A DNA stretch of 61,146 nucleotides, the filler included, from Hausera hauseri (taxonomy: Eukaryota), in assembly GCA_046269625.1 (NCBI GenBank). It is 9 parts of 9 records of this genome, joined end to end, with 100 filler letters (N's around TTAATTAATTAA, not from the genome) between each part and the next. Parts side by side here need not be neighbours in the genome. Positions count along the whole stretch, not along the records: positions 30,845 to 38,981 come from JBJURY010754319.1; 8 more parts are not named here. The stretch is one strand, 5' to 3'. A program made the translations under genes and the position numbers. The notes beneath the pieces were generated by a model that saw nothing but the letters and a program-made list of their open reading frames with translations, had not been told where the DNA came from and did not search any database. Shown piece after piece: positions 26,079-59,090 of the stretch (position 1 is the first letter of the stretch; each line of letters begins with the position of its first letter).

Positions 26079-29000
26079 ATGGCGCAGAAACACGAGGAGC
26101 AGAATTGCCACCGTGTAATGCAACATTATTTTGGGTACCAGCACAATAGGACTAAATACTATGTGTGTCTTGCACGTGAGGTAGTGTTCCGGACCGGTTA
26201 CGAGGAATTTTACAACCAACATAAACAGCATGTGAATTCATTCACAAAATCGAAGGAAGAAATATTCAACAGTAATATGTCAATGACAAGAAGTGTCCCA
26301 AAAGCAAATCAGATGTGCGGTTCCTATGCTTATTGCACATCCAAAACACATAATTCGTAACAGTGTCATAAAACGATGCAGCGGTATTATGGATACAAAT
26401 CCAAAAGTATCCAATATTATATGTGTTCCAGATATGAGACTGTATGCGGTGCAGATTACATACAGGTCTATTATGATCAAAAACAACATTTGAGTCACTT
26501 CGCATCAAAATCAAAGCAGGCCATTTATAATGAGCAACATAATACTAATGCATCTGCTTCGCAGTATGATGCTTCGCAGTATTCTGCCTCGCATTATGCA
26601 GCTGGATCTGGTGCAGCAGCTGCAAAACATATTAGAGAATTGAAACGCGCAACTGCATTATGCGCAGCAGCATCAGGCACGGCCACATCAGATGCACCGG
26701 CCCCATCAAAGGCCAAAGACAGCGGTCAGTTGATGCGGCAGCATTAAAGAGAAAATGCCGCAGATATGTTATTGATGCAACTGGTCAAACAACCCTCCAA
26801 GACTTCCTCTTATACACAAAGGACAAGACAGAGGGGATTCTCCAGGACAACATAACGGAGCTCAAAGCCCTTAAGGTGAATTTGAGACTGGAGGCTGCAT
26901 GCATCAATGTTAATGGCGAAGAATCCAATAGGGCCTTCAAGACCAAAAATAGGCCCATTTTTGAAGCCACCAATAGAGCAGAATGGCTGCATGAAGAGCA
27001 TGTGAAGCTGATCCGTGAAGCCGGGGAGAGCTAGGATAAGGAGAGCGGATGGACTCTTGTAACCATCAAGAGATTGCTTGTGTATGTTCACAAGTACTCT
27101 CCAATGCGGGGACGTTCCTATATTCAGCTTCCGGAATGGATCGCTAATAAAAAATCATGCATCAATGTTCTTAATGATGACAACAAGCTTTTTCCATTTC
27201 AGTGACGATGAGGCCGTGAACAAGCTTGCAGAGCACAAAATGCACTGCAACAACAATTATTGTATCAGGCCAGAATTTCCCAAAGAGAACTACACTGAAT
27301 TCAAGGAGTTCGAGAAGAAGATCAAGGTCCCAATAGTTATCTATAGCGACTTTGAAGCTATCCTGCGTTCAGTTCAGAGTTGCAATCCCAATCCCCAACA
27401 TAGCAGCACAACGGCATACCAATATCATGAACTCTCATCGTATTGCATGTATGCCAATGGACTGGGCAGTAAACCATTTCTATTCAGGGGTTCAGGCACA
27501 GCAGCTTATTTCAATAAACGACTTGAAGATATGGCTCATAGGCTTGGCGATATGCAGCAGCAGCATAAAGATACAATGAGCATGTCGAAGAAGCAAGGAG
27601 AAAAATGGTCCAAGGCAACAGCATGTTACTTGTGCGACAAATCATTCACCAAGGAAAGTTGGAAAGTCAAAGATCACTGCCATTTTACAGGCAAATATCG
27701 TGGCGCAGCATGCAACAACTGCAATCATCGCTGCAAAACATGCGCATATGTGTCTGTAGTGTTTCACAACCTCAGTGGCTATGATTCCCATTTCATAATC
27801 CGAGAATTAGGCAACATTGATGGTAATATAGATGTGATCTCCAACAGTGAAGAGAAATATATCACATTTAAGAAGCATGTTGGTAAAATCCGACTTCGTT
27901 TCATAGACAGCTTTCGTTTCATGTCGTCATCATTGAATAGTTTAGTGAAGAACCTCTCTGCATAAGAACTCAAGGAGACGAAGCGATTTTTCCCCATTAA
28001 CTTTGACCTTGTCAAGAGGATAGGCGTGTTTTCTTATGACTATATAACTTCATGGGAAACACTGGATGAGACCTCATTGCCGGCAAAGAAGGACTTTTAC
28101 AATATACTCTGATTGTCATATTAGTGATGCTGACTACCATTATTCTCAGAACGTCTGACATGCATTCCAATGCCGAAAATGAGGGAAATAGTGATATTTA
28201 CCTCAAGACGGACGTGTTGCTGCTGACAGACGTCTTTGAAAGTTTCAGGGATGTTACAATGAAGAGTCATGCATTGGATTCGGCTTATTTCTTTACAGCT
28301 CCAGGTATGAGTTGGTCAGCAATGCTGCGCTATACAGGTATTAAGTTGCAGATCATTAAGGATTATGATATGATCCTTATGATCGAGAGAGACATTAGAG
28401 GTGGAATATGCCAAGCCATTCATCGGTATAGCGAGGCCAACAACAAGTATATAGCTAAATACTACTCAACAAAGGAATCCTCATATATATAAATATATAT
28501 ATATATCATACTTGGTGCCAACAATTTGTATGGATAGGCAGTGAGCACCCCATCGCCATATGATAACTTCAAATGGGTCGAGAATCCTGAAAACATCCCT
28601 ATACAAAAACTAAATTCCCCTGGAGATACGGGATACACACTGGAGGTAGATATGGAACATCTAGCTTAGATACACGCAAGGCATCAACAGCTGCCTTTCC
28701 TCCTTGAGAGAAGGCCTCCGCTCCATGGAAAGCAGAGAAAGCTGCTCTGTCATCTGGGTAATAGAAAAGGTATGTAATCTAATACATCAATCTCCAGCAG
28801 GCTGTTAGACGTGGACTTTGTATTACTAAGATCCATAGATCCCTGTAGTTCAACCAATCCATGTGGCTGTAGTCATACATAGACCTCGGTATAAAGCTAA
28901 GGGCTAATGCCTAGAACGACATTGAGAAATATCAATTCAAAATATATAATAACAGCGTTTTTCGGCAAGACCATGGAGAATATCCGCAATTTGATCAACA

Positions 29001-30640
29001 TCGAACTGGTCTCTGAGTGGAAGCGAGCAAAGAAGCCCATTGCCAAGCCTAACGTCCACAGCAGCACCATATATACTGAGAACTTGGTAGGCACCTATAA
29101 GGATCCACATTACAAAAAATACTATTAACAAAATTATAAAATAACAATAGACAACATCACAGATTCGGTCAAAATAAAACATATCAAAAACAAATAAAAA
29201 TCACGGATTCGGTAAACATCAAAAATTTTGCCCATACGAAACAACATAAAAACATACCAATTAAAAAGCAAAAAGGAGATTGCAAGTGCTGGGGCAATCA
29301 GCACTTGTAGCCAACAAAAAATCACTAAACAAATTCTGTCGATTTAAACTCGTTTGTTTAAGTCCACAGTTTAAAGTCAGTTGATAGTTTTTCTAAAAAA
29401 GAAAAAAGAAACATTCACAGACCAAAATGCCAGAAATCACTAGAATCGGGAGTCAGAAAAGGAATGCATTGACCAACGGTGATGGAACCCAAAGGAATGA
29501 ATTGACCAGCGGCAGCGACAAGAAGAAAATGCCTTCCATGACCAGCAGCTACGATGGAAAGCAAATGTGTACTATCAAGGCACCGAAACCTGGGGAACCC
29601 ATCTCCAAGGAAGGTGCAAAGGCCACACTAGTCGGCATCGCCATCTCCGAAAGGAATATGCGGCACGTTCCGAATTACCGGATCCCTAAACGACCCCAAC
29701 CAGATTTGGCAACGATGCAAGACCTAGATGCCAGTCAAGCCTCGACATTCAAGCCAGACCAGCCGTGCCTGACCCGATGAGATACCGTCTCCCGCGAAAG
29801 ACAACGCCGCAACACCGGCAAGCAAGCCCCGTACCGGTCCTAGTCGGATTTTATGACGGTACGGGAGCTGCTGCAACGGAGCCGCTTCATACGACACCTA
29901 GTCAGGTTGGGGCTGGATGACCCCTACTCTTTACCCGTGAGAACACTCCATCGGTTCTATGAGGACGGGTAAAATCGACATCTCTTCGACTCGTCGGTTT
30001 TCCTGCCGGTTTTCCTTAGATTGATGACGACAGCCAACCGCCTCTACTAATCCTTTGCTCCCTGAGAGCGTCAGTTTATTCCATATCGCCAAACCATCGA
30101 AGCATTACGGACACGGACGTCCAGCTCCAGCTCGGACGACATTCGAGCCCATCCACGACGACTTCGCAGACTCAGGTCGTCTTGATCCACTACCGAGGAT
30201 TCGTATGCCTCAGCAGACGGCGGTTGTCATGACAATAAACGTTGCGAAAATTATCCAATATTGTTCATTTATTTTCTTGTTTCCGTTTTGATTTATTGGT
30301 TTGGCGCCACGATGTTATGCGACAAAGTTAAGGCTTTCATCAAGGCAAAAATACCTAAAGCACCCATATGCTGAAAACAGCATTTGTATTCAACAAGCCC
30401 ATATTTGTGGGTATGGCAATATTGAATCTAACAAAAACCCTAATGTACAGATTTCATTGTGACATCATGGTCCCCAAGTTCAAGTCCATGCAGCTGATGT
30501 ATATGGATACTGATAGTTTCGTCTATCAGATCCATATAGAGGATATTTATGAGGACTTTGCCCAATTGGCTCAACACATGGATACTTAGGACTATCCAAA
30601 GGAACATTTCAACTATTCAATTGCCAACAAAAGGGTACTT
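26079..30640 (+). pseudogene. Polinton/Maverick/adintovirus-type protein-primed DNA polymerase B with endonuclease VII-like zinc domain, decayed and interrupted
   Basis: ESGWTL..KYSP.RG.SY; IYSDFEAIL; CYLC...KVKDHCHFTGKYRGAACNNCN; FHNLSGYDSHF; FIDSFRFMSSSL; YLKTDVLLLTDVFE; IRGG; ANNLYG; FGKTMENIR. Resumes after an insertion with NKPIFVGMAIL and YMDTDS. Confidence 0.9.
29096..30359. mobile_element. 1264-bp insertion with 5-bp TSD (probable solo LTR) within PolB
   Basis: GCACC is duplicated at 29091-29095 and 30360-30364. Removing the insert restores ENLVGT-HMLKTAFVFNKP. Termini TATAAGG...CCTAAA resemble mutated TG...CA LTR ends. Confidence 0.8.
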
Positions 30641-30844
30641 GGGAGTACTTGACTCAATGGAATTTTATCTCAAAAATGAAGCCAAATATTTAAAAAATTT
30701 TTATTTAGTCAAGCAATGGGATTTGTTTCAGGAAGCCGCTGGTANNNNNNNNNNNNNNNNNNNNNNNNNNNNNNNNNNNNNNNNNNNNTTAATTAATTAA
30801 NNNNNNNNNNNNNNNNNNNNNNNNNNNNNNNNNNNNNNNNNNNN

Positions 30845-32250
30845 TATTCAAAATGCGCATATACCGGCAGTTCGAAATAGAATAAAGTATACAGAATCTT
30901 TAGAGCAAAAAGGATAGATAAAACAAGGGACGGCACTTGCAAAGGAGTGGATTACGACGTTGGAGGTACCATTGCGCCTAGAACGGTAGCTATAGAAGAT
31001 TATCAAATCCAATTGAAGGAATACGATGAATTATTTGACTCACAGACAAAATTAATGACAACGATGAGTGCGAATATAATAATGGCGAATGCGATACTGG
31101 AGAGTCAAAAATAACATGCCAGCTGACGTTACTGAAAGAAAAGAAATTTAACAAGACAGTAGGAAAAACAGCTGAGAAGGAAACAGCAACATATAAAGAA
31201 AGTACAAAGGAAGTTAAGATGACGGAAGTAGCTAAAATTGTATACTCGGAAAACTCAGAAGAAATGATGCGATTCAAAATCACTGGAGTAGTGAATAGGT
31301 GTAGTGAAGAAATGTCGAAAACTAACTATAAGGGTATTTTCTTATAATCAGAAGAAATACTTGGAGCAAAGACGAAAACAGATAAGAAAGGTATAAAGTT
31401 AACACAATATTTTGATAAGATTGATTTCCTAATAAACTATGTAAGAAAAGAGATTAGAGGTTTATACTGAGAGATTAATGAATGAATGTAAGCTAAATTA
31501 TGAAATAATACGAAATAAAATGGCCCTGATAATAACAAATCCAGATATGGTAGCGCCAGTAATGCCTTTTGGCGATGGAATTATTGGAAGAGTGATGGGT
31601 GAGGTATTAATAACTATAGAGTGCAAAAAGGCGGAAGAATCAATTAGACCAATGGAAGAATGATCAACGGAGTTCCACGTAGTTTATAACGCAGAACCAA
31701 GATGTGATGCCAGTGACAAGTATACTGTTAGACATCAATACGAAGCCCACGCTGTTATACAATTGTACTTTGAATATGTCACCAACGTTTAAAATAGACA
31801 ATGACAAATGGATCAGAATGCCAAAAAGAGAACCGGTATCTAAACAGGCGACATTAAGCTTGATTAATCTGCAATAGAATCAGAAATTTGAACCATTAAC
31901 AGGAATATCACAAAAAGGAATATATGCGCAACAGAATCTAGAAGATTATCGACGAATGTTGTTGTTTCCACAACAAAGACAACGAGTTATAACCGAACGA
32001 ACTAAGAGAGTAATGTGGGATGGAGAAGGATCACCACATTTGGAAAATTTGATGGGCAAGGATTACTTGAAAAAGGTAAAGTACGGCTTTCTAGCGATAT
32101 ATTTTATTATCAGCGCCATACGAACCGTATTCACCGCGCTTGGTGAGGCATATGGAATACATGCAGCAGTAGGCTGCTCATGGAAAATACTGATAGCAGT
32201 AATACATGCAGTATCAAGTTGCTTCCTGGCAAATCATGATGCCCAATGGA
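30845..32250 (+). pseudogene. Chuvirus/gB-like class III fusion glycoprotein (C-terminal part) of Ty3/Gypsy element A
   Basis: DGTCKGVDY, CEYNNGECDTG, ECKLNYEIIRNKMALIITNP..GRVMGEVLITIECK, MPVTSILL, GIYAQQNLEDYRRMLLFP. TM region YGFLAIYFIISAIRTVF then AYGIHAAVGCSWKILIAV. This pattern matches chuvirus-type glycoproteins. Confidence 0.8.
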
Positions 32251-32639
32251 AAAAGAAGATACTACATAAGAAAGATGGAAGAGATTTTCTGTATAGTATG
32301 CTGGATGAAAAAAGCATCAGATACGATAAGGTAAATACGAAATTAAAGAACAACCGCATAACTAGAATTAAGCAGTTAGCACTGAAGTCAAAAAAACAGA
32401 AGTACAAACAAAGGTTGATAACTGATTTACCCCAACTTAATCCAGTAGATGAATACGACGGAAAACTATATAACGAGCAACTATTGGTAAATCCATCAGC
32501 TCCCCGATACGTTATGCATGCAGGACTGTACCCTATGCATCAAGTACAGCAGATGAAACAAAGTTTTGACGAAAACGTGACACCTTATAAGCATAAACCT
32601 CCGTATAAAATTCGAGATAAGAACGGACGACAAACACCC

Positions 32640-35600
32640 ATAAGGCCAGAAATAGAATAGAGGTAAATGGATATCTGCTGACAGCCTTATTAGATACAGG
32701 ATCTACAACAACGATTATGGGAAGAAGCCAATTACAAAAGGAACATAGAGGAAAATTAAAGAAACCAACAACTACGTTAGTAAATATAGGAGCATTCGGC
32801 ACGGAAGAAGAAATTAAGATGGTCCTAGATGCAGAGATTAAGATCGGTAAACAAGTCCTCAAGCACACCATAAGAATAGCAGAGAATCTGACTAACGAAA
32901 TTTTAATTGGGTGCGATATATTAAACCAATTAGAAAATGTTTACATAGATGTGAGGACAGGCCAACTTAAAGACTTCATTGGAAATCAAAATGAAGGAAC
33001 AGTCGCATTAATCAAGGATATTATAATTCCATCACGTTCTGAGATAGTGGTGCCCGGAAAAATAGAAAGTTCTTTATTACCTGAAGTCGTTCACTTCGAA
33101 CCATATCCACAAGTTATGGAAAAGTACGAGATATTAGTTGTTCCTCATGCAGGTAGAAAAAGGAATGGAAAAATCCACTTAATAATTTGTAATATGGCAA
33201 ACAAAGAAAAGATTACGAAAGAATACTAGATTAGGAAAAGTAACGACTATAGAAGAAGTAATGGAAGATGTGGACAAAATAAAAAAAATGGTAGAGAAGC
33301 TAAAGAAACAGACAGAGACAAAGAAAGAATTAAGACTACCAATATTAACTGAAAGGAGAGACTACAAAAATACGAAATTTTAACAAAAGAAGAAAGGAAG
33401 ATGTTAATAAAATTGCTAGAAAGAAATAACAGTCAATTTACACAAAATGACTATAATTTGGAAACAATGAATATCATTCAACATACCATTAAGTTAAAGA
33501 AGGGACACGATAAACCCATAGAGAAAAGGCCATATCGATTGGCATATGACAAAAAGCAGGAAGCGCGAAAGATAATAAAAGAAATGAGAGAAAATAAGAT
33601 AATACGACCAAGTTGCTCCCCGTGGACAGCCCCAGTAATGATGGTCAAGAAAAAGGACGGGACTATGAGATTCTGCATAGATTATAGAGCACTGAACGAA
33701 ATAACGGAAACAGATACATATCCGTTACCACGAATCGACAAAATACTAGACAAGTTGCACGGATCAACAATATTTAGGACTATTGATTTACAGAAAGGCT
33801 ACTGGTAAGTAGAAGTGAAGGAAGAAGATAAACCAAAGACAGCTTTTTCGATATAAGAAGGATTATGGGAATTTAACAGAATGCCATTTGGATTAAAGAA
33901 TGGGCCGCCAACATTTCAGAGAGGGGCAGAACTCTTAGTATTAGATGCCCCGCATGCGATGGTATATATCGATGACTTAATAATATCACCCCCAAATTTT
34001 CAACGGCATCTAAATGATTTACAGGATCTCTCTGACAGATGCAAAATAATGGGCCTAAAGATAAATCCAAAGAAATGTTCATTTGCTCAGGCGGAAGTAG
34101 ATTTCCTTGCATATCTGGTTGATAAACATGATGTCAAACCTCAAAATAAACTTTTAGGAAAAATAAGAGACTTTCCAAAACCAGGTACAGTTAAAGGATT
34201 ACGTCGGTTATTAGGTCTGACGAACTACTATCGAAGATTCATAAAGGACTTCAGCAAAATTGCTAAACCTTTATATGAACTATTGCGGTAAGACCTAGAA
34301 AAAGTATTGTGGACAAACGAGTGCCAAAAAGCTTTTGAATATTTGAAGCATAAACTATTAACTTCTCCAATATTGATCTATCCTGATATGACCAAACCAT
34401 TTATATCAGCAACCGACGCAAGTGATTACGGAGTAGGGGCAGTATTATCACAAAAGGACGAAAAAGGAAAGAAACATCCAGTGGCCTATGCCTAAAAAAA
34501 CTCAATAAACATCAAAAAAATATGCCGTGACTGAAAAGGAACTATTGGCAGTAATATTCGCCTAGGAGGTATTCTCGTCATATATTAGCGAAAATAAACC
34601 TCTTTTAATCTATACCGATAATAGACCGCTCCAGTGGTTAAAACAACACTAGAATCCAAATAGTAGACTGCTACAATTGGCGTTAAAGTTACAGCCTTAT
34701 ACATTGAATTTCCAGTATAAACCGGGATCACGTAATGCAAATGCGGATTACTTATCCAGAATGCCCACAAAATCAGAAACAGACAAAGCAGTAGTGGTAG
34801 CAGTTTGGAGTATGGATGGATCAGCAGAGAAAATTATGGCTAACCAGAATGAAGACATGGAAATAAAAGCCATTAGAAAGTACATAAAGGACAAAACTGT
34901 ACCGACTGATAAAGAATTAGCCCGCCATGTGGCCCGATTCAGTGAAGCTTACGAAGAAAAAGAAGGATTTTCATACTTTATTCATCAGAACGGACCGGCC
35001 TTAGTTATTCCAAAGAAAAACAGAGCAGTTCTGTTAACCCAATACCATGGCGGATTGCTCGGGGACACCAATCAGCAAATAAGACAATTAATAAATTGAA
35101 ACGAAAATATTACTAGCCAACAATAACAAAAGACGTACAGGAATGGTGCGATAGTTGTAAATTATGAGCCACCAGAAAGAACATGAGATAAAAAATACAA
35201 AGACGCTCTCAAAGTATGGGACAACCCCCGGCACCATTTGAGTTCACCGCAATAGATATAACGGGACCATTACCGTTGACACGGAACGGAAATAGATACC
35301 TTTTAGTTTTTATCGACTATTACACTCGTTCTGTTGTCGCTCTACCGATGGCTGATATGAAAGCAGATACAATCGCTGAAAAATTTGTAGAAAACATAGT
35401 ATTCAACTATGGAGCTCCGAGAATCCTCATAACCGATCAAGCATCAAATTTAACAGGGACAGTAATGCAATTTATTTATGATATCTTGAAGACATGAAAA
35501 CTACGATCCACACCCGGACATCCTGAAAACAATGGGATGGTCGAGAAATATATTGGAGACTTAAAAGGAAAATTACAGATGGTGCTAAACACAAAGAGGA

Positions 35601-36060
35601 TGACTGGGATGAATACATCAACGCATATGTTTTTCTAAATCTAACATCGGTTCATGAGTCTACTAAAGAGACCCCTTTAATTTAATGTATTTCAAAGATG
35701 CAAGATTAACAATTGATTTAGATTTTAATGTGAAACCAACATCACATTTAATGGAGGTAGAGGAATACAAGCAATTAATGCAGGAACGCCTCCAATTAGC
35801 ATACAAAACAATTGGAAACAACCAAAAGGACTACAAATTAAAGTATAAAAAGTATTATTATTAAGACTAATCAGCCTAAAATGAAAATAGGTGACCAGGT
35901 GATGTTACCCTCGCCGTCAGTCAAAAAGGGTAGGACATCTAAGTTGGATAGACCATATAAATTAACTTATGAAGTAGAGAAAGTGGACCTACCGAATATC
36001 TGTTTGAAGAAAAATAATACTTCCCTTAAAGTCCACGTTAATAGATGCAAACCCGCTGCT
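32640..36060 (+). mobile_element. pol: Ty3/Gypsy pol of element A: protease, RT, RNase H, integrase (decayed)
   Basis: LLDTG (32693-32701); [24 protein letters not shown]; MPFGLKN; YIDD (33965-33976); ATDASDYGVGAVLSQ; NANADYLSR; AIDITGPLP; ITDQAS; NGMVE; GPY/F-like tail VHVNRCKP. The order PR-RT-RH-IN is diagnostic of Ty3/Gypsy. Confidence 0.96.
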
Positions 36061-36159
36061 AAGGAAAATGAATTAAGAAAAGGTGAAAGAGAGTTAGTAC
36101 AAAGCATTAGTGAGAAAGTAGTCAATGTAGACTCAACATGTAGACCTCGCCAGATAAAA

Positions 36160-37480
36160 CACGGTCTATTACTAATTATCATCATACTACTTCCGGGTGT
36201 TCTAGGACAGATATCTAACCAGGAAATCGAACAGGCAGAAATAAGACATGCAACGGCTATAAAAGAAGACCTGCTGATGAAAAATTTGCAGTATAGTATA
36301 ACATATTCAAGGAAAGGGCCAAAAAGTATGATCTGGAGTACTTCGATACAATTGCTCCCAGAATATTTGATAGGGATACAGGTGATACCCTGAGGCGATA
36401 ACAGAAGAGACCCAAATAAATGACAGTATGCCTGCCTAGTCCATCCATGGATCAATAAAACAATGTGTAATAGAAAACTCGGGAATTCACAATATATATT
36501 TCACTTTTATTAAGGAGAGGAGATTATGTTAGAAGTCAGTACACCAAACTTTATAAAACCATAAAAATTTCCACAAGACAGCAAATGAACGAAACATTAT
36601 TATATGAAATTATACTTAGCCAAGTGATTGCAAGATCAATGGGATTTAAAAGTGGAAGAAATTGTATTGAAATCATAACGATGATAGAGTTAGAATGCAT
36701 ACGATGGATAACCATAGTGATAAGAGAAACCATGACTCAGACGACGATAAAATGTAGAATTACGGATGAACAACAACGAGTTTGTTGTAATGTGACACGA
36801 GGAAAAATATACAGTGTTAACTATATCCTATCTCGAAAAGAATATTGACAATTATTAAATAGCTTAAAAAGCGAAGGACAAACAATGTATATACGCTATA
36901 AAAATTAACAAGAGTATGACGAAATACATAACGAAATACAAGAAAAGGTCACGACACTGGCTGTGCACTCTTCGGCTGACAGAAAGGAGATGATTATTTT
37001 AATTAAGCCATATGCTTCTTATTACCGTCAGAGACGCTCTATATCGGATAATGTAACATTCATGTCAGCCCCTATTGCACTAATCATTTCTACAAAACCA
37101 GATTTCGACTTCGTTAAAGTAAAATTTAGTTGTAAGAAACGGGATACAATAGTTGCAAAAGGTGTCGTAACTCCTGATGATCTGATTGTCCCATGTGCGG
37201 CTTTAAATCTTAATACAAGGTATACGGTCTTTTTACAGTTACTCGATGGTAATGATAAGATAACGTCCACTAAAGTAATATCAACGCTTAAAAAAGGAGA
37301 AAGGAACATAGAAGTACCATACGAAACAATAACCAGTAACAATAGAGTACGTTATATAAACACTCCCGCCTAGAGATAAGAATTATTGGTTCAATAGTTT
37401 CAGTAGTAGCTATAGTGACGGTGGTAATAGTGATCAAGGTAATACGAGTACTACGCAAGAGTAGACGGAGCTCGGTCTGA
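36160..37480 (+). pseudogene. Second putative type-I membrane protein of element A, downstream of integrase
   Basis: Signal-peptide-like HGLLLIIIILLPGVLG|Q in frame with the integrase tail; Cys-containing ectodomain; RQRR at 37026-37037; TM IIGSIVSVVAIVTVVIVI (37382-37435) followed by basic KVIRVLRKSRR. Frameshifted. Confidence 0.6.
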
Positions 37481-37886
37481 ATTAACCTGCGTGATCTAAC
37501 GAACCCGTTAGATATGACTAACCCCAGATGACAATTAATGAGAAGAACTGCAACTGGTGCAGTCCTGAAGTCAGAGATAACCACACGTCATCTGGTTAAC
37601 GCCCTCTATAACTTTTGTTTAAATAAAGTCACAACGATTACCAAAGTGGTTTATATGATAACCGTTGTGTTATATTTAAGTATTACGATTTTCCAACTAT
37701 TGACTATATTCTTTACAGTATCAGCCACCACCTTCCATCAGGTACAAACATTGGTACAGTAATGCCAAAAACCATGTCATTAACACCAACCCAACGATTC
37801 AATATTACGTCTCACATAACGATTATATGACCAGTCTTAATTATCCACAAACCCAATAAATCCCAAATAATTTAAAAGGCTATAGT

Positions 37887-38708
37887 ATGGCCAACCGTTC
37901 TCTTGCCCTCCTACAAATCACGAAAGCCACATCTTTCTTTTTGGCAGATATATTAATCTTACCAGAACGATTCCACTCAGTCAATTTTTATTGTATCCTG
38001 TGTCAATTTCAAACAAAGGCAACAAATATAAAGACATCTGTAGGAGATCTAATTAATTTGGATTTCGAACATGGTCTTACATTTGATCATTCGTTTCTAC
38101 AGAGTAACATTTTCAAAATTAGATCTAGTACGAATCGAGTGATCCTTGTCACTGAAGTGATTAAACACGAAAAATGCTTCAACTTACCTGAACTTGATTA
38201 TATCAAATATAAAAGTATACCTTTCCTCAGACTGGATAAGATAACAGATGATATGGTCATAGCGGCTGTCAATCTGGCCTATGACCAGTGGAATCAACTC
38301 CAGCATATTGAAGCATCGATCATGAATTTGCATGGTGACACTCTATTACATGGAATAATAACTCCCAGACAACAAATAAACAATTTTGATACACACATAA
38401 CCGGCCTCACAGAAGGGAACATTAACAACCAACTGGATCCAATAGATTTCTATCGAAAAGTAACTGAAATCATCACGGATAAAGTACTGATCGCAGCCGA
38501 CCTCATTGAAATGGTTGTGAACCATTTTAAATGCCCTATCAGGTGGATAGTCGGAGTTCGTGATATATTATATCACGAAGAGGTTATCCACAAGTACCAA
38601 TTATCGATAGGTATTTTCAAAGAGCTTGCACGCAAGTTTTATAAAACGAAAGGATTCTCTCTTCGCAGCACTGCTCTAGTACAATGCTATCAAGCTATCT
38701 ATAGGTAG
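37887..38708 (+). CDS. Unknown 273-aa ORF, probably accessory cargo of element A
   Basis: Long open frame co-oriented with pol. Coding-like sequence continues past the stop to about 38910. No motif recognised. Confidence 0.5.
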   Translation: MANRSLALLQITKATSFFLADILILPERFHSVNFYCILCQFQTKATNIKTSVGDLINLDFEHGLTFDHSFLQSNIFKIRSSTNRVILVTEVIKHEKCFNLPELDYIKYKSIPFLRLDKITDDMVIAAVNLAYDQWNQLQHIEASIMNLHGDTLLHGIITPRQQINNFDTHITGLTEGNINNQLDPIDFYRKVTEIITDKVLIAADLIEMVVNHFKCPIRWIVGVRDILYHEEVIHKYQLSIGIFKELARKFYKTKGFSLRSTALVQCYQAIYR

Positions 38709-39419
38709 ATTAAATGGACAGACGAATTAATAACTCAAAGTACGGCCTCCGACAGGGTGCGAACAGCACCAACCACATCACAGTGTGGTAGGATGAGAAA
38801 GCTCCAAGTTGAAGAAACAATTTTAGTGGACGATGAAATCTATGAACTAGAAGCCATGCGATACAGATCCTGTACTACTGACAAATTCATTCACATGCCC
38901 CTGTCTCTTAATAAATAAATTGAGACATTTTCTTCGATTCCCCTTCGACTGTGAATGTTGTGAAATTTTAAATACTTTAAANNNNNNNNNNNNNNNNNNN
39001 NNNNNNNNNNNNNNNNNNNNNNNNNTTAATTAATTAANNNNNNNNNNNNNNNNNNNNNNNNNNNNNNNNNNNNNNNNNNNNTAAATATTAAAAGTGTGAT
39101 TTGATTTTGGAATTTCTGAAAATTTGTTTCAAAATCAGTATTTTGAGATATAATAAAATTTTTCAACAACTGGTGTTAACTTTTCAATGATTAACTACAA
39201 ACGATCCAATTCTGCTTCTGCGGACGTACCAGAAGCGGGGATTTCCCAACCCTCCTCAAGCTAGGCGACGATGTGGACGGTGTGGATGCGCACTCAGCCA
39301 ACATGAATAAAGCAGTTTTGTCTCTCCAACATACTCAAGGATAAGGATGCAATTATTTCTCGTTCCTTCATAAATGAATTTTCGTAATCAGTAAATCATT
39401 TTTGTCCACTAGAGAAGTT

Positions 39420-40853: not shown

Positions 40854-41495
40854 CTAACAAGTGATACTTAAGTACTGGGGTTTGTCTAATGAATAGTCAG
40901 AGAGACATGCAAAATATAATGCTGATTAATAATATGTAAAAATTTTTGCCGCGAGCGGCAAAATAACGCTTTTACATATAATAGCATTTCGCACTTGTTC
41001 AAATACATCCCACTGTGTTTAGGAATTTTGCATTTAGACAACATTTTCATTACTTTTCTCGAGCTAATGTTCTTTTAATATTCGATTTATCATGTTTCCT
41101 TGATGTTCTGCGAATTAAAAAAATATCCATCTAATATAGTCCGTGGTCAGTCATGTGCATAGTCAAAATTTATACACGACGGAATATGCTATTGTGAATT
41201 AAACCAATACATTTTAGATAGACAGAACATAAAGAAAACATTATAAATTGAATATTAGGAAAACAATAGAACGAGAAAAGGAACGAAAATTTTGTCAAGG
41301 TTCAAAATTCCTAAACATAGTGGGGAGATTTGAAAAAGTACGACGTGCTGTTACATTTAAAGGCTCGAAATGCGTTACTTTGATTTTCTCGGCAAAATGT
41401 TTTTCATATTATTAATCATCATTATATTTTGCATGTCTCTCTGATTATTTGTTATAAAAATGACCCATATTTACAGTAAAATCCCTCATTTATGG
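40854..41495. mobile_element. MITE-like long inverted-repeat element
   Basis: GAGAGACATGCAAAATATAATGCTGATTAATAATATG (about 40900) is inverted at about 41405-41441, with further nested inverted matches inside. A partial third arm lies at about 41570-41665. Confidence 0.8.
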
Positions 41496-42009
41496 TACTT
41501 GTACAATATTCCCCACCTTCACTGAATTATAAATTTTAACAAATTCCACAAAAGAAATGTTCAGCAATTTTCTCATATTATTAATCAGCATTATATTTTG
41601 TACGTCTTTCTGACTATTTGTTACAAAAATCGCAGATTTACAGTAAAATTCATCTCCTTGTAAGTTACATTAGTCGGGTAAAAACTATAAAATTAACATA
41701 GAAAATTCAAGATTTTACTAAGTGACCTTCAATGAAATTACAAATTGTTTACATTAGTAAACATGGATATTCCAGATTTCAAAAAATTATGGAATTGTTG
41801 GCATGCCTAAAAGTATTATTGCCTATGAAAACCAAGGTAAAGTGATTGTATGTATTTAATTAAATATGTTGAATCTTTTTGAAGAAAAAGTAACAATAAT
41901 TTCAACTGATGGATAAAGCATTGAAACTATCATTATTATCAAATGTAATGATCCAAACGTAATAAGAACCAACACATAATTCTTTATTAAAACACAAATC
42001 TCACTGTTT

Positions 42010-43062
42010 TTACAATTGTTTGAAATAATCTCCATCTGTTTGTATGCACTTTTTGGGCGATTTCGCCATTGTTCATAACACTTTTGACAGTCATTTGTAG
42101 GCAGTGTTTCATATACTGCGAAATTGCAGTTCCAAGTTGACTCCGACTCTAGCATCTGTTCCCGCGTAGGTGATCCTTTAATTGTTGGAATCAGCCAGAA
42201 ATCACAGACAGCCAAATCATGGCTGTAAGGTGGGTGCGGAATTATTTTGATGTTTTGTTCTCCTACAAACTCTAGCACAACACCAAACATATGGGCTGGA
42301 GCATTATCGTGGTGGAGGAGTAGAGGTGTGTTAGGATGATTGTTGTTAAACTGTTGTAGTTCATAAGGAATAACTGATTCACGATAGTACTTGCCAGTGA
42401 TTGTCCTTCCAACTGGTGTCGGAATTTGAGCACCAGGTCCCATGCCGTTGAAAAAAATGTAGTACAATATCCTGTGCCGAGTCTTCGCCCGCCTGGCCAT
42501 TTGAAGTGGATGATCGCCTTTAGCTATCCAGACCATGTTTTGTTGTTTTCTTTTGAGTTCAAATTAGTGCACCCAAGTTTCGTCACCCGTAGCCACTTTA
42601 AGAAATGTGGATTGACCCATCCTCTTAAACTGACTGAGGCGAGAACGACGTTTCAACACGTTCCACTTTTTGAGCTGGTGTCAATAAATGGGGTATCCAC
42701 CGTGAACAAACTTTTCTTAGATGTAGGTAATTTGTCATAATGGCCTGAACTCTTGCAAAACTAATGTTCTGCATGTTAGATATATCACGCATTGTTCGAA
42801 AAGGGTCACCATACATCAAGTCATGGATACAGGCAATGTTTTCATCAGTAGTGATTGTAACAGGACGTCATTCACGACGGTCATCTTCAAGGGATTGTCG
42901 GCCGTCTCTGAAACGCTTTGCCCACAAGGCAATTGTAGCATATGATGGTGCAGCTTCTACACTAATAGTACGCAAGCCATCATGAATTTTCCTGGAGCTG
43001 TCATTAAGCAACACTCTGCACCTGATGTAAGCTCTAATCTCAAGTTCTGTTAAAACCACCAT
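42010..43062 (-). mobile_element. mariner (D,D34D) transposase pseudogene
   Basis: WAKRFRDGRQSLEDD; WIPHLLT; ATGDETWVH; LLLHHDNAPAH; HPPYSHDLAVCDFWL. Frameshifted. Confidence 0.93.
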
Positions 43063-43486: not shown

Positions 43487-43804
43487 NNNNNNNNNNNNNN
43501 NNNNNNNNNNNNNNNNNNNNNNNNNNNNNNTTAATTAATTAANNNNNNNNNNNNNNNNNNNNNNNNNNNNNNNNNNNNNNNNNNNNTATGTGTGTATCAT
43601 TTTTTCTACCCCATGACTCATACGCGAACCAAAAATAATTTTCTTCCCCGGGAGGGAGGGGGGCTTGAAGCCATGTGCTCACATCTACCTATTTGGGTAG
43701 TGTACATAAACCCAACTTCCTTCCAGATCGTGCGGTTTTGCTTTTTTGTCGTACTGCTTTTTAAATCGTTCTTGATATTCTCGGGATAACTCTTTAGCAA
43801 CTTC

Positions 43805-46630
43805 TCAACGCCTCTGTAACCCTATCTGTAACACGTCTAAGAAATTTTGTTGTAAATCTTTATGATTAATCGTGTAGGGTGTCATTTCTAAATCTGTCGG
43901 TAATATGGCTTCTCGTGCATACATCATGAAAAATGGTGTGAATCCCGTTGCAGGATGTGGTGCCGTATTAATAACGAATTGAGTTCCTTCAAAGAATTCA
44001 TCCCAATCCTTTTGGTCTTTTGCGACTACTGTTGACAGAATATGTATAACAGTTGAGCTCATACGCTCCATTATTCCATTACATTGGGGATGGTATGCGG
44101 TTGTAGTTAATCGTTCGATTTCGAATATTTTGGTTATTTTATCAAATAGTTTGCTTGAAAAGTTTCTTTCACCTTTTTCCGTTTGATTGCGCACACTTTA
44201 CAAGCACTTACCCAATTTTTTACATCAGTGTAAATACTCGACCAATAATATTTTTTCAGTATTCTTTCTTGTATCTTTTTCCAAGACATGTGTCCAACTA
44301 AGTATGAATCGTGTTCTGCCATTAAAACTTCTGTTCTTAATAATTTTGGAATGACTGTCAGTTTTTGCCCTTTACGTTCATAATATAAAATATCTTCGTG
44401 ACCCTTATCACTCGAAACACACTGAGTCTTTGCAAATGTTTCTTTAGCTGATGTCCTTTGGTATTATATCTTTCTCAGCAAATCTAGTAATCTGAATGAC
44501 TCTATCTTTTTGCTGTTCTGTCGAAATTTTAATTGGTTTTTCCAATGTTAAAGCGCGTTGTCCATCTACTAACTCTTCGAGTTGAGTTTTCTTCACTGTA
44601 GTAATTTCACTCGTTTTAGTTCTTAATCGCGATAATGCTTCAGCATCTACGTGTTTACTTCCAGGTTTATATTGAAATTCAGTGTTACAACTAGAGATCT
44701 CTTCGGCCCATCTGTTGAGTCCACATGTAGGATTATTTGTACGCCTTTTCAAAGTTGTAACCGCTTTGTAATCAATAACGATTATAATTTTCTGTCCGTA
44801 AACATAGACGTTAAAGCGTCGTAACGTTTCTTTTACGGCCAGTGTTTCTAATTCTGCAATCGAGTAGTTCTTCTCAGCTTTCTTTAACGAACATCCTACA
44901 TAAGCGATTGGGTGTCCTATTCTTCATCTTTCCGCTTTTGAAGTAATTCTTATCTAATACCTTCTTTACTAGCGTCCGTTTTAATTATAAATGGAAAACT
45001 AAAATCTGAATATCCTAAGACTGGTTCGCTGGTCAAAATGTTCTTTATTTCATCGAAAGCCTTCTGTTTGACATCAGTCCATTTCCATACAATTCCTTTC
45101 TTAAGCAGAAGATATAACGGTGCATTTATTTTTGACTTATCTGGCACATAGGTGGCGTAATATCCACACAAGCCTAACCTCCTGGTTTTGTGGCTCCATA
45201 CAATCTGATATTTTATTCAACAATGACTTATCGGGTCTTGATCTTCTCAGGTAGGATACTGTACTTTGAGCCACTTGCATTTCTTAGGGTTTAATTTCAA
45301 TCCTGCTTTCTCTAATCTTTTAAATGTTCTTCTTCTGTTCTCGACACTACAATTACATCGTCTAAATAGGCAAATGGATGATCGAGTGTCATTAACATTC
45401 TATTCATCATTCTTGTGAAAATGGCTGATCCAATTGTGGTACCGAACGGTATGACATTAAATTCATATACATTATCGTGCGTTTTAAACGTCGTTTTATA
45501 ACGCTGTTCGCCTTCAATTTCCATTTGTCAATATCCGGATGGTAAGTCCCAGTGATGAACCATTTTCCTACTGAGAGTCTATCTAAAGCTTCCTTTACGG
45601 ACGGCAACGGAAAAGAATCTTTCATCATTAGAGTGTTCAGTGCTCTATAATCGATGCAAAATCGATGTTTTGTAGTACCCTACTTTTTAACCATAAGTAT
45701 CGACGAATACCAAGATCTATAACTAGGTCTAATTATGTCGGCTTTAAGCATTCGTTTAATTTCTTTTGTTACTTTGGGTCTTAATGAATGCTGTGGAGGA
45801 TACCATTTCGGCATCTTCTGATCTTCGAGATCAATTTCCTCATTTGAACCAGGCTTTTTCTTAAGAGGAATTGTTAATCTTAGGGCTTTGGCTCTGCCAA
45901 TATCTTCTTCATTTTTGGCAATGATTGATTTACAGCTGCATAATAAGTCATAAAAGCTGCAATAAAATTTAAATAAAAATTTAGACTCAAGATGAGCCGG
46001 AAATTTCGGCGAAATTATAAGGCTTTCCTCAATAGTTATAGACGATGCGTTATTAGTATGGCCTAAAGTGGTATTAACGTATAGTTTAACGGTATTGGTG
46101 CGCTATTCGCTAATCTGATAGGCACACAGCCGGATGTAGTTAATACATTACTAAATACGACATTGGATTTAACGTTTCCTTAGCTCGAAATATTCTGGTT
46201 GATCATCGTCTTGGCGGATTTGTGCATATATCAAAATTTCTGTTCCAGGAGGAATCTCCTCGTCTACTGGAATCAATACTTCTCCATATTTCCTATTTTT
46301 GTACTTTTCACTCCTTTTATCGGTTCGAGTTCTATTAATTTATCAGCGTGCAAATCTACTGCCACATACGACAATTGTCTCAATAAGTCACACCTTAGTA
46401 CTACATCGTCGGTTTGTGGTGAAAAAATTGTCCCATAATGTAAACTTCTAGATTCCACTTGAACATCAGTCTCGACATCTGTCCAAAAGCTCCCATACAT
46501 CCAGGGTGTTTCATCGATGGAAGGTACAATTGTTCCCTTAACATCTGCAGTATTAAGTCAATTTTGATGTATGACGTCGATTAAGGCATAAACGTCCCAA
46601 TCTTCAATAATAACTTTAACAAAGGGTCTC
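43805..46630 (-). mobile_element. pol: Ty3/Gypsy pol of element B: protease, RT, RNase H, integrase (decayed)
   Basis: RPFVKVIIEDWDVYALID (46576-46629); FCIDYRALN; IPFG; YLDD (45357-45368); IKTDASKEG; HVDAEALSR; H2C2 zinc finger (GHMS...CKVC); TTAYHPQCNGIMER. Confidence 0.95.
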
Positions 46631-47329
46631 CTTCTATCACTGTCCCATAAGAATTCTATGCGATCTTTCGTTGTTTAATTGTTGATATTTTATAACCCTT
46701 AATTCTGATTTCTGCAGAGACAATTATGTTTTCAGTTAGTTGCTTCAATTTTCCATTGGGATATAGTTCGTTGTTTGCGACGTTTGAATTTTCCACTTCA
46801 TGGATTCTGATTAGTGCTTTACGATTATTTGTATGTGGCTCTAGATTTCGAAAAGTTTGCATTCTTTGATTTCCCCAGACTGTTGATTTGGTTTCTGTAT
46901 TTCGAGCTATTCATGCAGAATATAATACTTTGTGGTCATCCACTGACTGCCCGCGATAGGGTACAGAATTTTCTGCATTTTTATACATTTTCCGTAAAAC
47001 TCCATATTGTTTTGTTCCTTCGAAACTAAACGGTCTTCTATAGATTTCTGTTTGATACGAACTCATCTTCGTAGATTGATATCGTAGGAGGCAAGATAAG
47101 TAGTGGTAGCATTATGACAGAATACGTTTTGTATCTATTTACTCTGGAGATGGCTTCTCCTCCCTTAGGCGCGTCATCATCCGAATCGTTTTTCTATGTT
47201 TTAGGTGTGAGGAATTTTCGTCTATATAAAAATATAGGTTTCCATCGTCGTTTTTGATTATTATAGTCAACATGTCGTTCTATATCAGTTTTCCACCTAT
47301 TTTCTTCATAAGCTTTCAGAAATTTTCCG

Positions 47330-49090
47330 AACGGTGTTATAATTGCAGTCAAAATTTTGCATGAAAATCCAGTTTATGACTTCTTGAATTACGGCTTTGC
47401 TTAACTATACCAGGAAATACATCGCTAAAATTCCAGATGCGGTTTATCCAAAAATTAAAAATTCACAAAAGTTTGTATTGTATTTCAGTAGTTACTGGTT
47501 GAAAATAGTTAGCACCAAGTAAAGATTCGCATTTTGCTTGGTAGCTAGTATCGTCTACTACTGCAGCCATGGCTTGATTTATTTCATGTGTTCGTTGATG
47601 TGGGAAGGCCAGAAAATGCCTAAACGCTTCTACTTTCCTAGGTCTATAAATACCTTTTGATGAACTATCTTGAAATTTGTCAACCGTTATACCTTTTACG
47701 AGATTGGTTCCTGTCAGTTTGTTCGGGGCAACAGTTATGCCTCCATTTGCTAAGCTTGCCCAATCCGTTTCACTACGTCTGAACACTGGTTCTTCTAAGC
47801 TCACTTTATATTCTTTTAAGGTTGTTGGCTGAGTTGAGTTAGCTAACAAGATTCTAGTAAGTGGCATAGCTAATCGAGTTGTATTTTAGCACAAAACCGG
47901 AAATTCTTTTATACAGCGTTTTTCTTCAAGATTAATTGGTACATCTCTTTTCTCACATTCACAGATTAACATGATGTCGCATTTGACTCGACCAAAAACT
48001 CCTTCTCACAATGGAATGATTGGTGATGCTAATTAGAGATTGGCATATATCTAAGCCATTTGGTTTCCATGATTTCCATATCTAGTTTACTGTCGTTCGA
48101 CATAATCTTGTGGTATAGTTCGGTTATTCCGACTTGTCCTTTGTAGTAGAAACAATCAACTCTATTTTTCAAGTAATCCTTCGTTTCCAACTTATTTCGG
48201 TTTCTACTATGAAGAATGCTTCGTAATTGGTGGTATACATCACTACTTGGAAACGACAGAGCATTTATTTCTTTACAAATATTGATCCATGAGGGTCAGA
48301 GATTAATATAGTTGGTGTAGAGTGTTCCGCCACATCTTTTCATGTCCTCGAGCTGCTATCTAACTTATTTACATATTGCTTACCAGTAGTTTCATTGAAC
48401 TTTAGCTCCTTAATTTTAATAAAATTGCAGTCTTTTCCAGAGGGCGGTTCCCATATTATAACTGAACTTCTGAAAGTACAAGTACTGTCCTGTAAATGAC
48501 ATTTTTTGTTTTCGGTATATAGTTTGGTGACGCTATGATACATTGACTTCTGTGTTGACATTTCGTTTTCACAGAAATCTACAACTACCACACATCTTCC
48601 TTTTCCTTTTCCGGTGTCATATTCTTAGCCACTGCAATATCCAATATGCATATCTAGTTTTCCTACTGCTACTTTAAATGATCGAACTATTTTCCTTTGT
48701 GGCATTTCGAGTTCCATACCGTCCCATCTGAATCTGCCGGTTTCTTTGGCTACTTGCATTGTTGTCTTTCTAGATGTTGTCTTTCAATGTTGTCGGTGGT
48801 GTTGTGGGTTTTATTATTGATGAGTGACAATGCATTTGTCCGCTATGAAAAATTCTACGAGATCTTCGTAACGTACACTCTAATCCATCCAATAATATTA
48901 ATTCTCGATGTTGGTATAGGATGTAGCTTTTCTCCTTTGTCTCTAATTTGTGCGGTCTAGCGTCTTCACACATTTCTAGGTCCATTAGGGAGTACTTCTG
49001 GCCAAGCTTAAATTTGTCGCAATCGTAAACCGTGACAGCACTTATTGTTTTATTAGCATCATCAAGGTTAGGAAAATAATTAACAAATTC
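47330..49090 (-). pseudogene. Chuvirus/gB-like class III fusion glycoprotein of Ty3/Gypsy element B
   Basis: Frameshifted signal peptide LLIIFLTLMMLI then ISA|VTVYDCDKFKLGQKYSLMDLEMC..YILYQ..GLECTLRRSRRIFH.GQMH.HSS; CHLQDSTC...IIWEPP...C; EGVFGRVKCDIMLICEC..CIKEFPV..MPLTRIL; KGIY...FLAFP. Confidence 0.82.
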
Positions 49091-49099
49091 GATTTACTT

Positions 49100-51477
49100 C
49101 CTCGGTTACTACCGGCTTATATCAAATTTCATACTATATCTTCGAGTCTGCTACTACTATTACTAGTGGATAGTCTGTTTTAGTATTCTTCTTTTTCAAA
49201 TTGTTTTGACAAAATTATTTCTCGAAGTAGTTTCCTGGCTGCCTTTTATGATAAACTCGTAGCTCTGTCAAATTCGTTTTCACGATTTGGGTTTATCTTA
49301 ATAGCTAAGTATAGAAAACCTTCTACGGTATTTTCTACCATGATTTTTTCAATCACCATTTCATCGGTTAATGTGCTTTTTGATAATCTAAAACGATAAT
49401 TTCTCATCATTCTGGCTGCACTATATATAACATTCTCTTTATCGTCTAACCCATCGCCACGGAGACTGGAGTAATTTACGATACGTATTAAATACTTCAT
49501 TGGTTCAATTAATTCTTCGTTATCCGCATTGAAAGTGGATATTGACATTTGTCTTAATTATCTAATCAAGTCTCCATCATAGTAGATTCCTTGTCGTATT
49601 TTCCTCGGTCTATCAACAGGCGTTTCTGCCCTGCTGTCATCGATACAGCTTTACTTTGGGGTGCTAAGTTTTTATCGTATTGTTCCTTATCTTTATTGGT
49701 TGCAAGTATTGGAAGTGCACTGCAGTATCTCGGACTCCTATGATTTGTCCTAGGCATTAGTCGGCTTTAGTCTTTCTCGTGGCTTCTTCTTTATATTGTT
49801 GATGAGCAGCTTTTGCCGCTATTCGATTTGTGTCATCAGAGATAATCCCAACGTTTATTAATTATTCTAATTCGTCCAATATTCTGCTTCTAAAATAAAG
49901 TCTATATTTTAGTTCGTTTCCATCACCATTGTTTATTAGTAATTGTCTTACGTCCCTCACTCAGTAATGCATTCTTTTTCATTCATTTACTCAGATGACG
50001 TCTTCATTTTCAACGTCACTTCAGGTTTAGCTTTTCAGATTTTAGCATATTTTATTAGAAGTTTTGGCACAGCACTATAATTGTGTTTCCACTCTACAAT
50101 TTAGTCTGAGTAGGAATAAGTTGTCTTAACCTATTTTCAGTGATATTTACGTTAATTAGCTCAATTAAATTCTTTTCAGTTAGAGCTGAATCCAGAAGCA
50201 TCACCACATTGAATTTCCGATTCTTTGGGTGCATTTCCGTTTCATACAGAAGTTCTGGATTTTTCGGATTTTCGGCAATTATGGCATCGATATATGCATT
50301 CTATTCTGTGTCATTTTGATTTTTCGGAAGTCCATGGTCAATAGGGATCTTTGGTTGCTGGACTATATTAGCATTTTGTATCATTTCTCTCATGCTGCGT
50401 AACATTTGTTGCACTTGACCATTTATGTCGTTTGAAACAAAGTCCGTTGCCAGAAACTTGGTGCAACAAAGTTAACAATTAACAAAGTTCGTCTACCTGA
50501 ATCATTCCTTTTTGTAGATAATCGGTTAGCTCAGAGGTTTTATCTCGCTGCCATCTTTGTACGAATTCTGCTTTATTGGCTATTTCCGATTCCGTGCGAG
50601 CGTATTTATTTTTATATGCGTTCAATTCTGTAGTTAGTTCATCTCTTTTTGCTCTTCTTTGGTCAGTACAAATTGGTGTTTTGTGAATGCGACGTATTAG
50701 AATTTGCAATTGTCGCATTTTCTCATCGTTGATTTCCGCTATTTCTACTAATAACGACGTTAATCCGCTCAATTCTTTTAAATTCCTGGAGTTAGAATTA
50801 ATTTATTCAATTAATTTTTATGAAACTAGTTTTCTCGAAAGTAATTCGGCGATCTTCCATTATCTCTATTAATTCAGCATGCCATTTTTGATCTGATCCT
50901 GGAATCCATTTATGAGGGTTCTGTAGAAATTTCAGTACTCCTTCTATTGACAGTTCACAATCCGTGCAGATGTGTAATAGTTTTATTTCTTGGATAGAGA
51001 TTTCGTTTATAGTTTTGTGGCTAATTGTTGAACTTCTAAATGGACATTTCTTAATTTCGAATAGAGGTCACAAGTCATGTTTTGCTTTGTCTGAAAATCT
51101 GTTCCTTCAATAATTTTATTTATTTCGTTCATTAATACCATCTCTTTGTTCTTATCCATAATTTTTAGTTGTTGTAGTGTATTGAATTGCGTCCGGATAT
51201 CTACTTCCGCTCTCATTGTATCTACATTTCGTGAAAATTTTCCCAATTGTTGCTTCACTATCAGTTCGCTTTCTGGGAATTTTTTATGCAATTTTTCACT
51301 ACATGACTCAGCTCAGTATGAATTCGGATCATTCCTTTAGATGGTTAGCTATTACAGGCTTTACCAGTATTGCTCTGTCTAACGTTTATAAGCATCTTTT
51401 AATTTGTCGTCTGCACGTTTTACAAAACTCATAATCTGGTTGACATAGTTGAATTCGTCTTTGTACTAGTCAAATTC
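49100..51477 (-). pseudogene. Unknown, partly coiled-coil polyprotein region upstream of the glycoprotein in element B
   Basis: Co-oriented broken ORFs 49246-49548, 49566-49757, 50479-50772 and 51007-51291. No gag or pol motif recognised. Confidence 0.5.
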
Positions 51478-58579: not shown

Positions 58580-59090
58580 ACGCGGAGTATTTGATTCTAG
58601 GTATTACAAAGTATCGATCATCATCGTATAGTGCCGAAACACAACCGTAGTGCATAATTTGTGGCCAAGTCATAAAAATGATTCCATGAAACCATTGAGG
58701 TTAAAGAAACACTTTGAAACAAAGCACTCAGAGTTTCAGAATAATTGTTGATTTCTTTCAGAAGAAAGAACCACAGTTAAAAGGCACTCAAAAAACTGTG
58801 TCCCACGTTCATAACAGAATCGTACAAATTAGCCGTAATTGCCTCCCTTAACGTGGCTCAACTCAGCTCAGAAAAGCAAACATCATACCATTGCCGAAGA
58901 ACTCGTTCTACCAGCAGCAAAAATTACGGTATCATCAATGATTGGTGATAAGGCTGTCAAAGAAATTTCACAAATTCCTTTGTCTAACAACACAATACAA
59001 AGGGGAATTAAATGCATGGCAGATAACTTTAAAGAACAGTCAATAGAAAGAATTTATACATCCCCTTGTTTTGACATACGGTTACACATG
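58580..59090 (+). mobile_element. hAT Buster/ZBED5-type transposase relic
   Basis: BED finger CIICGQV..SMKPLRLKKHFETKH; HTIAEELVLPAA; IPLSNNTIQR.I..MA. Confidence 0.85.

Follow-up and report, generated by a model that had tools for sequence, protein, structure and literature searches.

The window, a 61,146-nt stretch of Hausera hauseri DNA in which contigs are strung together with N-linkers between them, includes between two of these linkers a contig (30845..38981, + strand) that carries a retroelement, here called element A. Along its plus strand we located the broken C-terminal half of a gene for a Monjiviricetes-type (gB-like, class III) fusion glycoprotein (31445..32232; PF24664, E 3.1e-07 and 5.6e-11), an aspartic protease (32621..33226; PF13975, E 3.8e-08, and PF00077, E 4e-08), a broken reverse transcriptase with RNase H (33353..34492; PF00078, E 7e-14, and PF17919, E 1e-22), and a broken integrase core with its C-terminal tail (35225..36160; PF00665, E 4.6e-10), the tail being assigned from its position and from known motifs. 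The PF24664 matches bear out the upstream fusogen on which an earlier note on this DNA had built. This gene closes with two stretches that are hydrophobic by hydropathy (32076-32232), and its 5' part is decayed and likely runs off the contig. The contig ends inside the element, and its start lies in the env region or slightly 5' of it; neither an LTR nor gag was detected on 30845-38981, a search for long direct repeats gave no match, and no purine tract of nine or more occurs in the last 280 nt. In sequence along the contig, the Pfam matches give a PR-RT-RH-IN order for pol, and BEL/Pao has the same order, but the families matched (PF17919, PF17917, and PF00665) are not BEL-specific. By these matches, which are an indirect indication, we class the high-copy element A as probably Ty3/gypsy-type, though the pol order alone also fits BEL/Pao. 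Moreover, its gB/Monjiviricetes-type env lies 5' of the protease (PF24664), as in a GAG-ENV-POL gB-type errantivirus. Several sister contigs differ from element A at the fusogen-protease frame junction (among the pieces listed), which would be compatible with a longer polyprotein.

After the integrase lies a broken membrane-protein gene of about 440 codons (ORF X; 36163-37477, +), in the place where the earlier note had read a second membrane protein from five features. All five are found there, though they are spread over three frames with stops between them. At the front, a signal-like hydrophobic stretch (36163-36207, +), preceded by basic residues and with no ATG of its own, shares the frame of the integrase tail, as had been proposed, within a stop-free run from 35842 to 36390. 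The nearest in-frame Met 5' of it is at 35902, a simple pattern search gave no match to a splice acceptor before it, and the junction to the integrase is clean and in frame. Then follow the broken N-terminal ectodomain (36208..37025, +), in which beta-favouring residues are abundant by composition, the furin-type motif RQRR (37026-37037, +), the strand LNLNTRYTVFL, located as a string in the sequence (37203-37235, +), the transmembrane helix (37382-37444, +), and the basic cytoplasmic tail (37445-37468, with the feature drawn to 37477, +). Here, the leader is read in frame 0, the ectodomain in frame 2, and the helix in frame 1, the frame shifting once before 36474 and again near 37375; stops occur in frame 0 at 36391 and 36421, and in the frame-2 ectodomain (36474 to 37370) at 36846 and 36906. 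ORF X in the element A copy is a pseudogene. The Cys-containing ectodomain of the earlier note is present, if modest in this respect, with 7 Cys and 3 N-x-S/T sites among the 299 frame-2 codons. Neither a hydrophobic fusion peptide nor a coiled coil was found after RQRR, and no intron-like interruption was seen in ORF X. Judged by hydropathy and the chance test, the parts, as pieces in three frames, match the layout of a type I membrane glycoprotein, that is, a leader, an ectodomain, one transmembrane helix, and a basic stop-transfer tail. The plus strand of the whole contig has only three hydrophobic peaks of at least 1.9.

For the chance test, we generated 1000 first-order Markov sequences of the same ORF X stretch. 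The 19-residue hydrophobic peak of the helix (2.75) was reached by 2 of the 1000, which upholds the helix as previously described, and none attained the 154-codon stop-free run. At least one R-x-[KR]-R motif, however, appeared in 706 of the 1000, and RQRR, although present where the earlier note had it, is consequently no evidence by itself. The fewest breaks needed to read across 36160-37480 (1321 nt) amount to 7, against 18.3 +/- 2.5 for random sequences (0/300 as low), and the N-terminal ectodomain requires 3 in 686 nt, again lower than any of 300 random sequences. In fact, the break density of ORF X (5.3 per kb) is like that of pol (4.9; 17 breaks in 3480 nt) and of the fusogen (4.4; 6 breaks in 1351 nt), while two control stretches with 15 and 13 breaks in 1301 nt are at chance level. 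Since this density equals that of pol and the fusogen and falls far under chance, ORF X was a real gene that has decayed along with the element. The A-rich strand bias is also of a similar order, with an AT skew of 0.20 in ORF X and 0.27 in pol. A beta periodicity, measured as the hydrophobic moment, did not stand out above shuffles (71/300). The earlier note is supported in that a second membrane protein gene, type I by its layout, follows the integrase in an element whose class III fusogen gene lies 5' of the protease.

As sister copies we used the contigs of two public runs, X1 and X2, the first possibly being the sample from which the window itself derives. Along the whole element A contig (8137 nt), 16642 X1 and 1886 X2 contigs aligned and covered 30 of 30 bins. 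The ORF X region, whose absence from sister copies the earlier note had set against its own reading, is present in them, with 35990-37900 (1911 nt) covered by 1442 X1 contigs in 30/30 bins and by 112 X2 contigs in 25/30 bins. By identity, the 1442 X1 contigs fall into bands of 64 at 99% or above, 140 at 95-99%, 356 at 90-95%, and 882 under 90%. Among the 16 pieces listed, a divergent X1 contig covers 36088-36442 with 47 differences and so runs from the last part of the pol frame through the leader into the beginning of the ectodomain, and another covers 37211-37523, with the predicted sandwich, helix, and tail. At one element A stop codon most contigs listed there differ from the element A copy, as is expected for private decay; an intact ORF X was not seen, because no piece among these 16 crosses the entire region. 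The contigs support ORF X as a family-level feature and not a one-off insertion, and we infer that it formed one continuous frame fused to pol. A hand count of 17 listed differences within 36474-37370 placed 3 at first, 7 at second, and 7 at third codon positions, a count that is uninformative because most changes are private to the element A copy. One X1 sister contig skips 594 nt (36062-36657), including the ORF X leader; the ends of the gap read GG..GA with no splice pattern, and the contig is an internally deleted copy.

To relatives of ORF X, sequence comparison gave no lead. No Pfam family matched at E<=10, fn3 included, the decayed sequence reducing sensitivity; PDB sequences returned no match to the read-through and only two ribosomal P0 entries (E 0.66-0.94) to the stop-free piece. 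None of 417 and none of 255 candidates from a collection of 5.8 billion proteins proved to be a relative, and 1.84 billion representative proteins gave no match at E<=0.001. Scans of viral contigs (with P0001, which is the ORF Z homologue described below, the ORF X piece, the RT, and the fusogen ORF), of metagenome contigs (with the ORF X piece and alignment A1), and of genome contigs (with alignment A1) likewise yielded no confirmed relative.

Our model, built from the single sequence of the stop-free piece 36909-37370 (mean pLDDT 49, pTM 0.45), covers the membrane-proximal part, or roughly one third of the ectodomain, and places six strands at residues 56-127 (pLDDT 48-72), where the FN3 topology has seven. 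On this model and the structure searches, residues 54-128 (37068..37292, +) make up a predicted FN3-like beta-sandwich. With Foldseek on the PDB, 21 of the 39 rows listed are titled FN3, monobody, or adnectin, the last two of which we take to be FN3 scaffolds. The best match is FN3 domain 2 of CD148 (E 7.1e-03, prob 1.00), and none reaches E<=0.001. In the wide aligner VIA, the fibronectin Fn7B8 fragment came out best (Z 5.7, rmsd 2.5, 72 aligned), with gp130, Sevenless, DCC, LEP-R, and CD45 near it in the list, and C2 domains and glycoside-hydrolase sandwiches within 1 Z unit of it; a Z below 8 may reflect a common arrangement in this aligner, and no match attained Z>=8. Against viral structures, the best match has an E of only 0.025, and no named fusogen is among the 50 rows listed. 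An Ig-like sandwich adjoining the membrane is thus the likely prediction, and FN3 as its specific type is suggested by a low-confidence model. The structure search called for by the earlier note returned a beta-sandwich with FN3 at the top, albeit below threshold by both Foldseek (E 7.1e-03) and VIA (Z 5.7), and the strand that had reminded its author of FN3 falls within a stretch for which FN3 is the best, though weak, fold match and for which no fn3 profile matched. We discarded a count of FN3 string patterns (0/1000 random), as the pattern had been modelled on the observed strings. An impression of several tandem FN3 repeats was also set aside, the two frame-2 pieces not aligning with each other (E 0.43).

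Directly 3' of the ORF X tail, we observed a further broken gene that does not figure in the earlier note (ORF Z; 37655..38906, +), with a hydrophobic leader (37655-37714, +) evident in the sequence. Its homologue P0001, an unbroken protein of 447 residues encoded on a 1561-nt contig, is 55% identical (E 9e-99), and with tblastn gives 52% over its residues 24-444 (E 3e-142); P0001 starts at a Met matching 37655. The unbroken state of P0001 at 55% identity indicates selection on ORF Z in the family's past. No Pfam match was found for ORF Z. P0001 resembles ISG20L2 (7yw5) with an E of 0.0026 over 66 residues, and scores 0.91 against Atlas RNase_T clusters (164-167 shared features), the exonuclease-matched part corresponding to about 38310-38507 (+; ISG20/RNase T-like) in element A. 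A D-x-E just before this part, the presumed position of the acidic motif, is visible in neither ORF Z nor P0001. ORF Z is best described as an ISG20/RNase T-like exonuclease-fold protein, apparently lacking the acidic motif. Weak Atlas leads (<0.9 only) for P0001 residues 28-225 point to a second exonuclease-fold domain, and ORF Z possibly has two tandem DnaQ-fold domains. A model from the two-sequence alignment was unusable (pLDDT 38).

Elsewhere in the window, a decayed gypsy-type element (element B; 43587-51477, -) also has a PF24664 fusogen 5' of RT-RH-IN and shares with element A protein pieces of 30-47% identity. It gives this assembly another family with env ahead of pol, and the contig breaks off in the integrase tail, short of any ORF X position. 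At 54409-56700 (+), a gag-like ORF that has no Pfam match, but in which a CCHC-like knuckle can be made out by eye, is followed by a 210-codon ORF of no assigned family (55611-56240, +); the two may form the 5' portion of an element of this kind that carries additional domains. Other contents are a 3566-codon stop-free frame (1-10698, +), coiled-coil-like in its first half, which contains tandem repeats of 87-90 nt (6431-8741) and a 77-nt segment duplicated exactly at 1/106; a decayed Polinton-like DNA polymerase B with an endonuclease VII domain (26600-30740, +; PF03175 and PF02945); and a higher-GC contig (16798-24066) with a hAT-type transposase (PF14291, 19641-21188, -) and LINE-like pieces, which gives the impression that it may come from another organism than the remaining contigs. 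Finally, an uninterrupted TRAF-like RING/zinc-finger ORF (-) sits beside a C-terminal HSP90 ORF (+) at 57254-60617, both of which could be processed copies or element cargo, and a mariner-like DDE transposase fragment (41859-42563, -; PF13358, with PF01359 weak) has diverged related repeats at 40969-41630 and 51621-52111. The TRAF-like and HSP90 genes, together with the hAT, LINE, and Polinton-like debris, suggest an animal source.

Several traits of element A have published counterparts. GAG-ENV-POL errantiviruses with an HSV/gB-type env are described from Nematoda, Bryozoa, and Platyhelminthes (PMC13524379, available text), and like element A these are multicopy and carry a gB-type fusogen 5' of a PR-RT-RH-IN pol. 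Three ORFs are described for them there, in contrast to the two further genes after the integrase in element A, of which the contig includes neither gag nor LTRs; the words 'fibronectin' and 'accessory' have no occurrence in the main text of that paper. The giant gypsy Burro/GYPSM1 of planarians similarly combines an env that has mononegavirus fusion-protein matches with accessory host-like domains, and its env is in frame between gag and pol. However, the domains named in the available text (MATH, BIR, ankyrin, BCL2, SUMO-like, and dUTPase) lie 5' of or within pol, and no FN3 membrane protein after the integrase is named there (PMC6431247). An env in frame within a polyprotein has precedents in Burro (PMC6431247) and, as far as the accessible text goes, in Atlas (PMC9094657). 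The Atlas/Cer13 belpaoviruses encode two glycoproteins, GN-GC, in one polyprotein, a pairing that can be likened to the fusogen and ORF X, with one of the two serving attachment (in phleboviruses) and the other fusion. Yet Atlas belongs to Belpaoviridae and has a class II fusogen, and its adjacent proteins were acquired jointly from a phenuivirus, while in element A the two membrane proteins flank pol and are apparently of different origins (PMC9094657, in the text available). Bdelloid Vesta/Juno LTR elements, like element A, have membrane and DnaQ-fold exonuclease ORFs after pol; there, a TM or DEDDy-exonuclease ORF3 replaces a true env, whereas in element A such ORFs accompany a fusogen, and the Vesta/Juno exonuclease retains its catalytic residues and has no TM, unlike ORF Z with its hydrophobic leader and apparent lack of the acidic motif (PMC5408684, accessible sections). 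ORF X can also be likened to the sORF2/FAST-like proteins of the MDG1 group, non-env membrane proteins for cell-to-cell spread, although, in the part of the report available, sORF2 is a short protein of elements that have no env, and ORF X has about 440 codons and a large ectodomain (10.1101/2025.03.14.642691). Taken one at a time, a fusogen placed before pol, an envelope of two glycoproteins, and additional ORFs for membrane proteins or exonucleases have all been published, and the claim of the earlier note that a second membrane protein is unusual for an LTR retrotransposon is narrowed by the Atlas envelope (PMC9094657) and the bdelloid TM ORF3s (PMC5408684), so far as their available text shows. 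The combination seen in element A, an LTR element with an ORF for an FN3 membrane protein, and a gypsy with a fusogen plus a second glycoprotein were not encountered in the literature searched, by title and abstract start, with most subscription papers and Repbase outside its scope, and the element tables of PMC13524379 may include such cases.

Our best explanation, which we hold tentatively and at a little less than an even chance, is that ORF X was a non-fusogenic single-pass surface glycoprotein with a host-receptor-like FN3 fold, encoded at the end of the pol polyprotein and serving as an adhesion helper for the fusogen. Its anatomy, coding signal, decay in step with pol, and presence in many sister contigs are observed, and its FN3-like fold is predicted. 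The polyprotein route, the host origin, and the adhesion role we infer, the route from a leader that lies in the integrase frame and has neither a start codon nor a clear splice acceptor, and the origin from the predicted fold class. On this explanation, ORF X would stem from the capture of a host gene for a receptor or adhesion molecule, and its product would form the C-terminal end of the polyprotein encoded by pol; the signal-like stretch would route its ectodomain into the ER, signal peptidase would free it from the integrase, and the helix and basic tail would anchor it in the membrane. Sharing membranes with the gB-like protein, it might then help particles, or the cells that produce them, adhere to target cells of the germline, with fusion left to the gB-like protein. 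Of the two roles raised in the earlier note, host-receptor cargo is, as far as origin goes, in closer agreement with the fold; a virion attachment protein paired with the fusogen is putative, and no viral glycoprotein was matched.

The same fold matches, headed by signalling receptors and adhesion molecules (CD148, gp130, LEP-R, Sevenless, and CD45), would also suit a captured receptor fragment acting as a decoy or receptor mimic that loses its N-terminal part by cleavage and shedding at the furin-type site and, with ORF Z, forms a defence-evasion cassette with no entry role. In the insulin-receptor and receptor-phosphatase families, a furin site stands just before a membrane-proximal FN3 domain, though no such sequence match to ORF X was found in the PDB. 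The resemblance of the neighbouring ORF Z to ISG20L2/ISG20 fits such a cassette, as do the host-modulating domains of Burro (PMC6431247, in its available text). RQRR also shows a basic-for-basic change that keeps the motif in most contigs listed there, but this is one row among the listed differences, with 424 more beyond them, and the motif itself is at chance level. Moreover, ORF X has no recognisable catalytic or signalling tail, and no match suggests a ligand. We regard a decoy as unlikely, if still worth weighing. A second, divergent fusion envelope protein of the furin-cut SU/TM type would agree with the place after the integrase and with the leader, furin-type motif, and C-terminal helix, which are generic env features, TM and furin motifs not identifying an env according to the accessible text of PMC5408684. 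We consider it very improbable, given that the model shows a beta-sandwich after RQRR, where neither fusion peptide nor coiled coil was found, that about 440 codons match neither PF24664 nor another fusogen family, and that the 50 viral-structure rows listed name no fusogen.

It is improbable, too, that ORF X is an unselected passenger, that is, coding DNA of the host or another element acquired shortly before the family expanded. Such an origin would fit the absence of an ORF X homologue from the protein collections searched, where ORF Z has one, and the fewer X1 contigs per base (1442 on 1911 nt against 16642 on 8137 nt, counts unsuited to ranking). Against it stand the pol-like break density and strand bias, the retention of the region in copies down to under 90% identity, and the clean in-frame junction to the integrase with no intron-like interruption. 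We give an equally low probability to ORF X being the front half of one multi-pass polyprotein with ORF Z, cut by signal peptidase and ordered as leader, ectodomain, helix, cytoplasmic linker of about 70 residues, second leader, and exonuclease-fold domains. The ORF X helix, the linker, and the ORF Z leader do share one frame with two stops between, but the breaks in the linker are at chance level (1 vs 1.9; 104/300 random), and P0001 begins at its own Met, though its contig is only 1561 nt long. This alternative concerns expression, and is compatible with adhesion and decoy functions alike.

The ORF X region is a real, decayed, family-level feature of an env-carrying Ty3/gypsy-type element. 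The element A copy is dead, and the fold and function proposed for ORF X rest on a weak model and on reasoning. Accessory genes such as these, lying 3' of pol, can escape surveys that go no further than its stop codon. Env-carrying Ty3/gypsy elements are described as three-gene elements, and the mechanism of transmission outside Drosophila is called elusive in the available text of PMC13524379. A second surface protein of host-receptor fold, with a nuclease-fold gene, beside the fusogen would be a candidate for the missing targeting step. Going further, and as a doubtful proposal, the element A lineage may have built up an entry machinery in two parts, each captured independently: 5' of pol, a class III fusogen of mononegavirus type, and after the integrase, an FN3 adhesion protein of host origin, accompanied by a secreted or membrane-tied pseudo-exonuclease, all cut from one polyprotein. 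If true, such a retrotransposon would divide the labour of entry as herpes- or paramyxoviruses do and would possess accessory genes like those of retroviruses.
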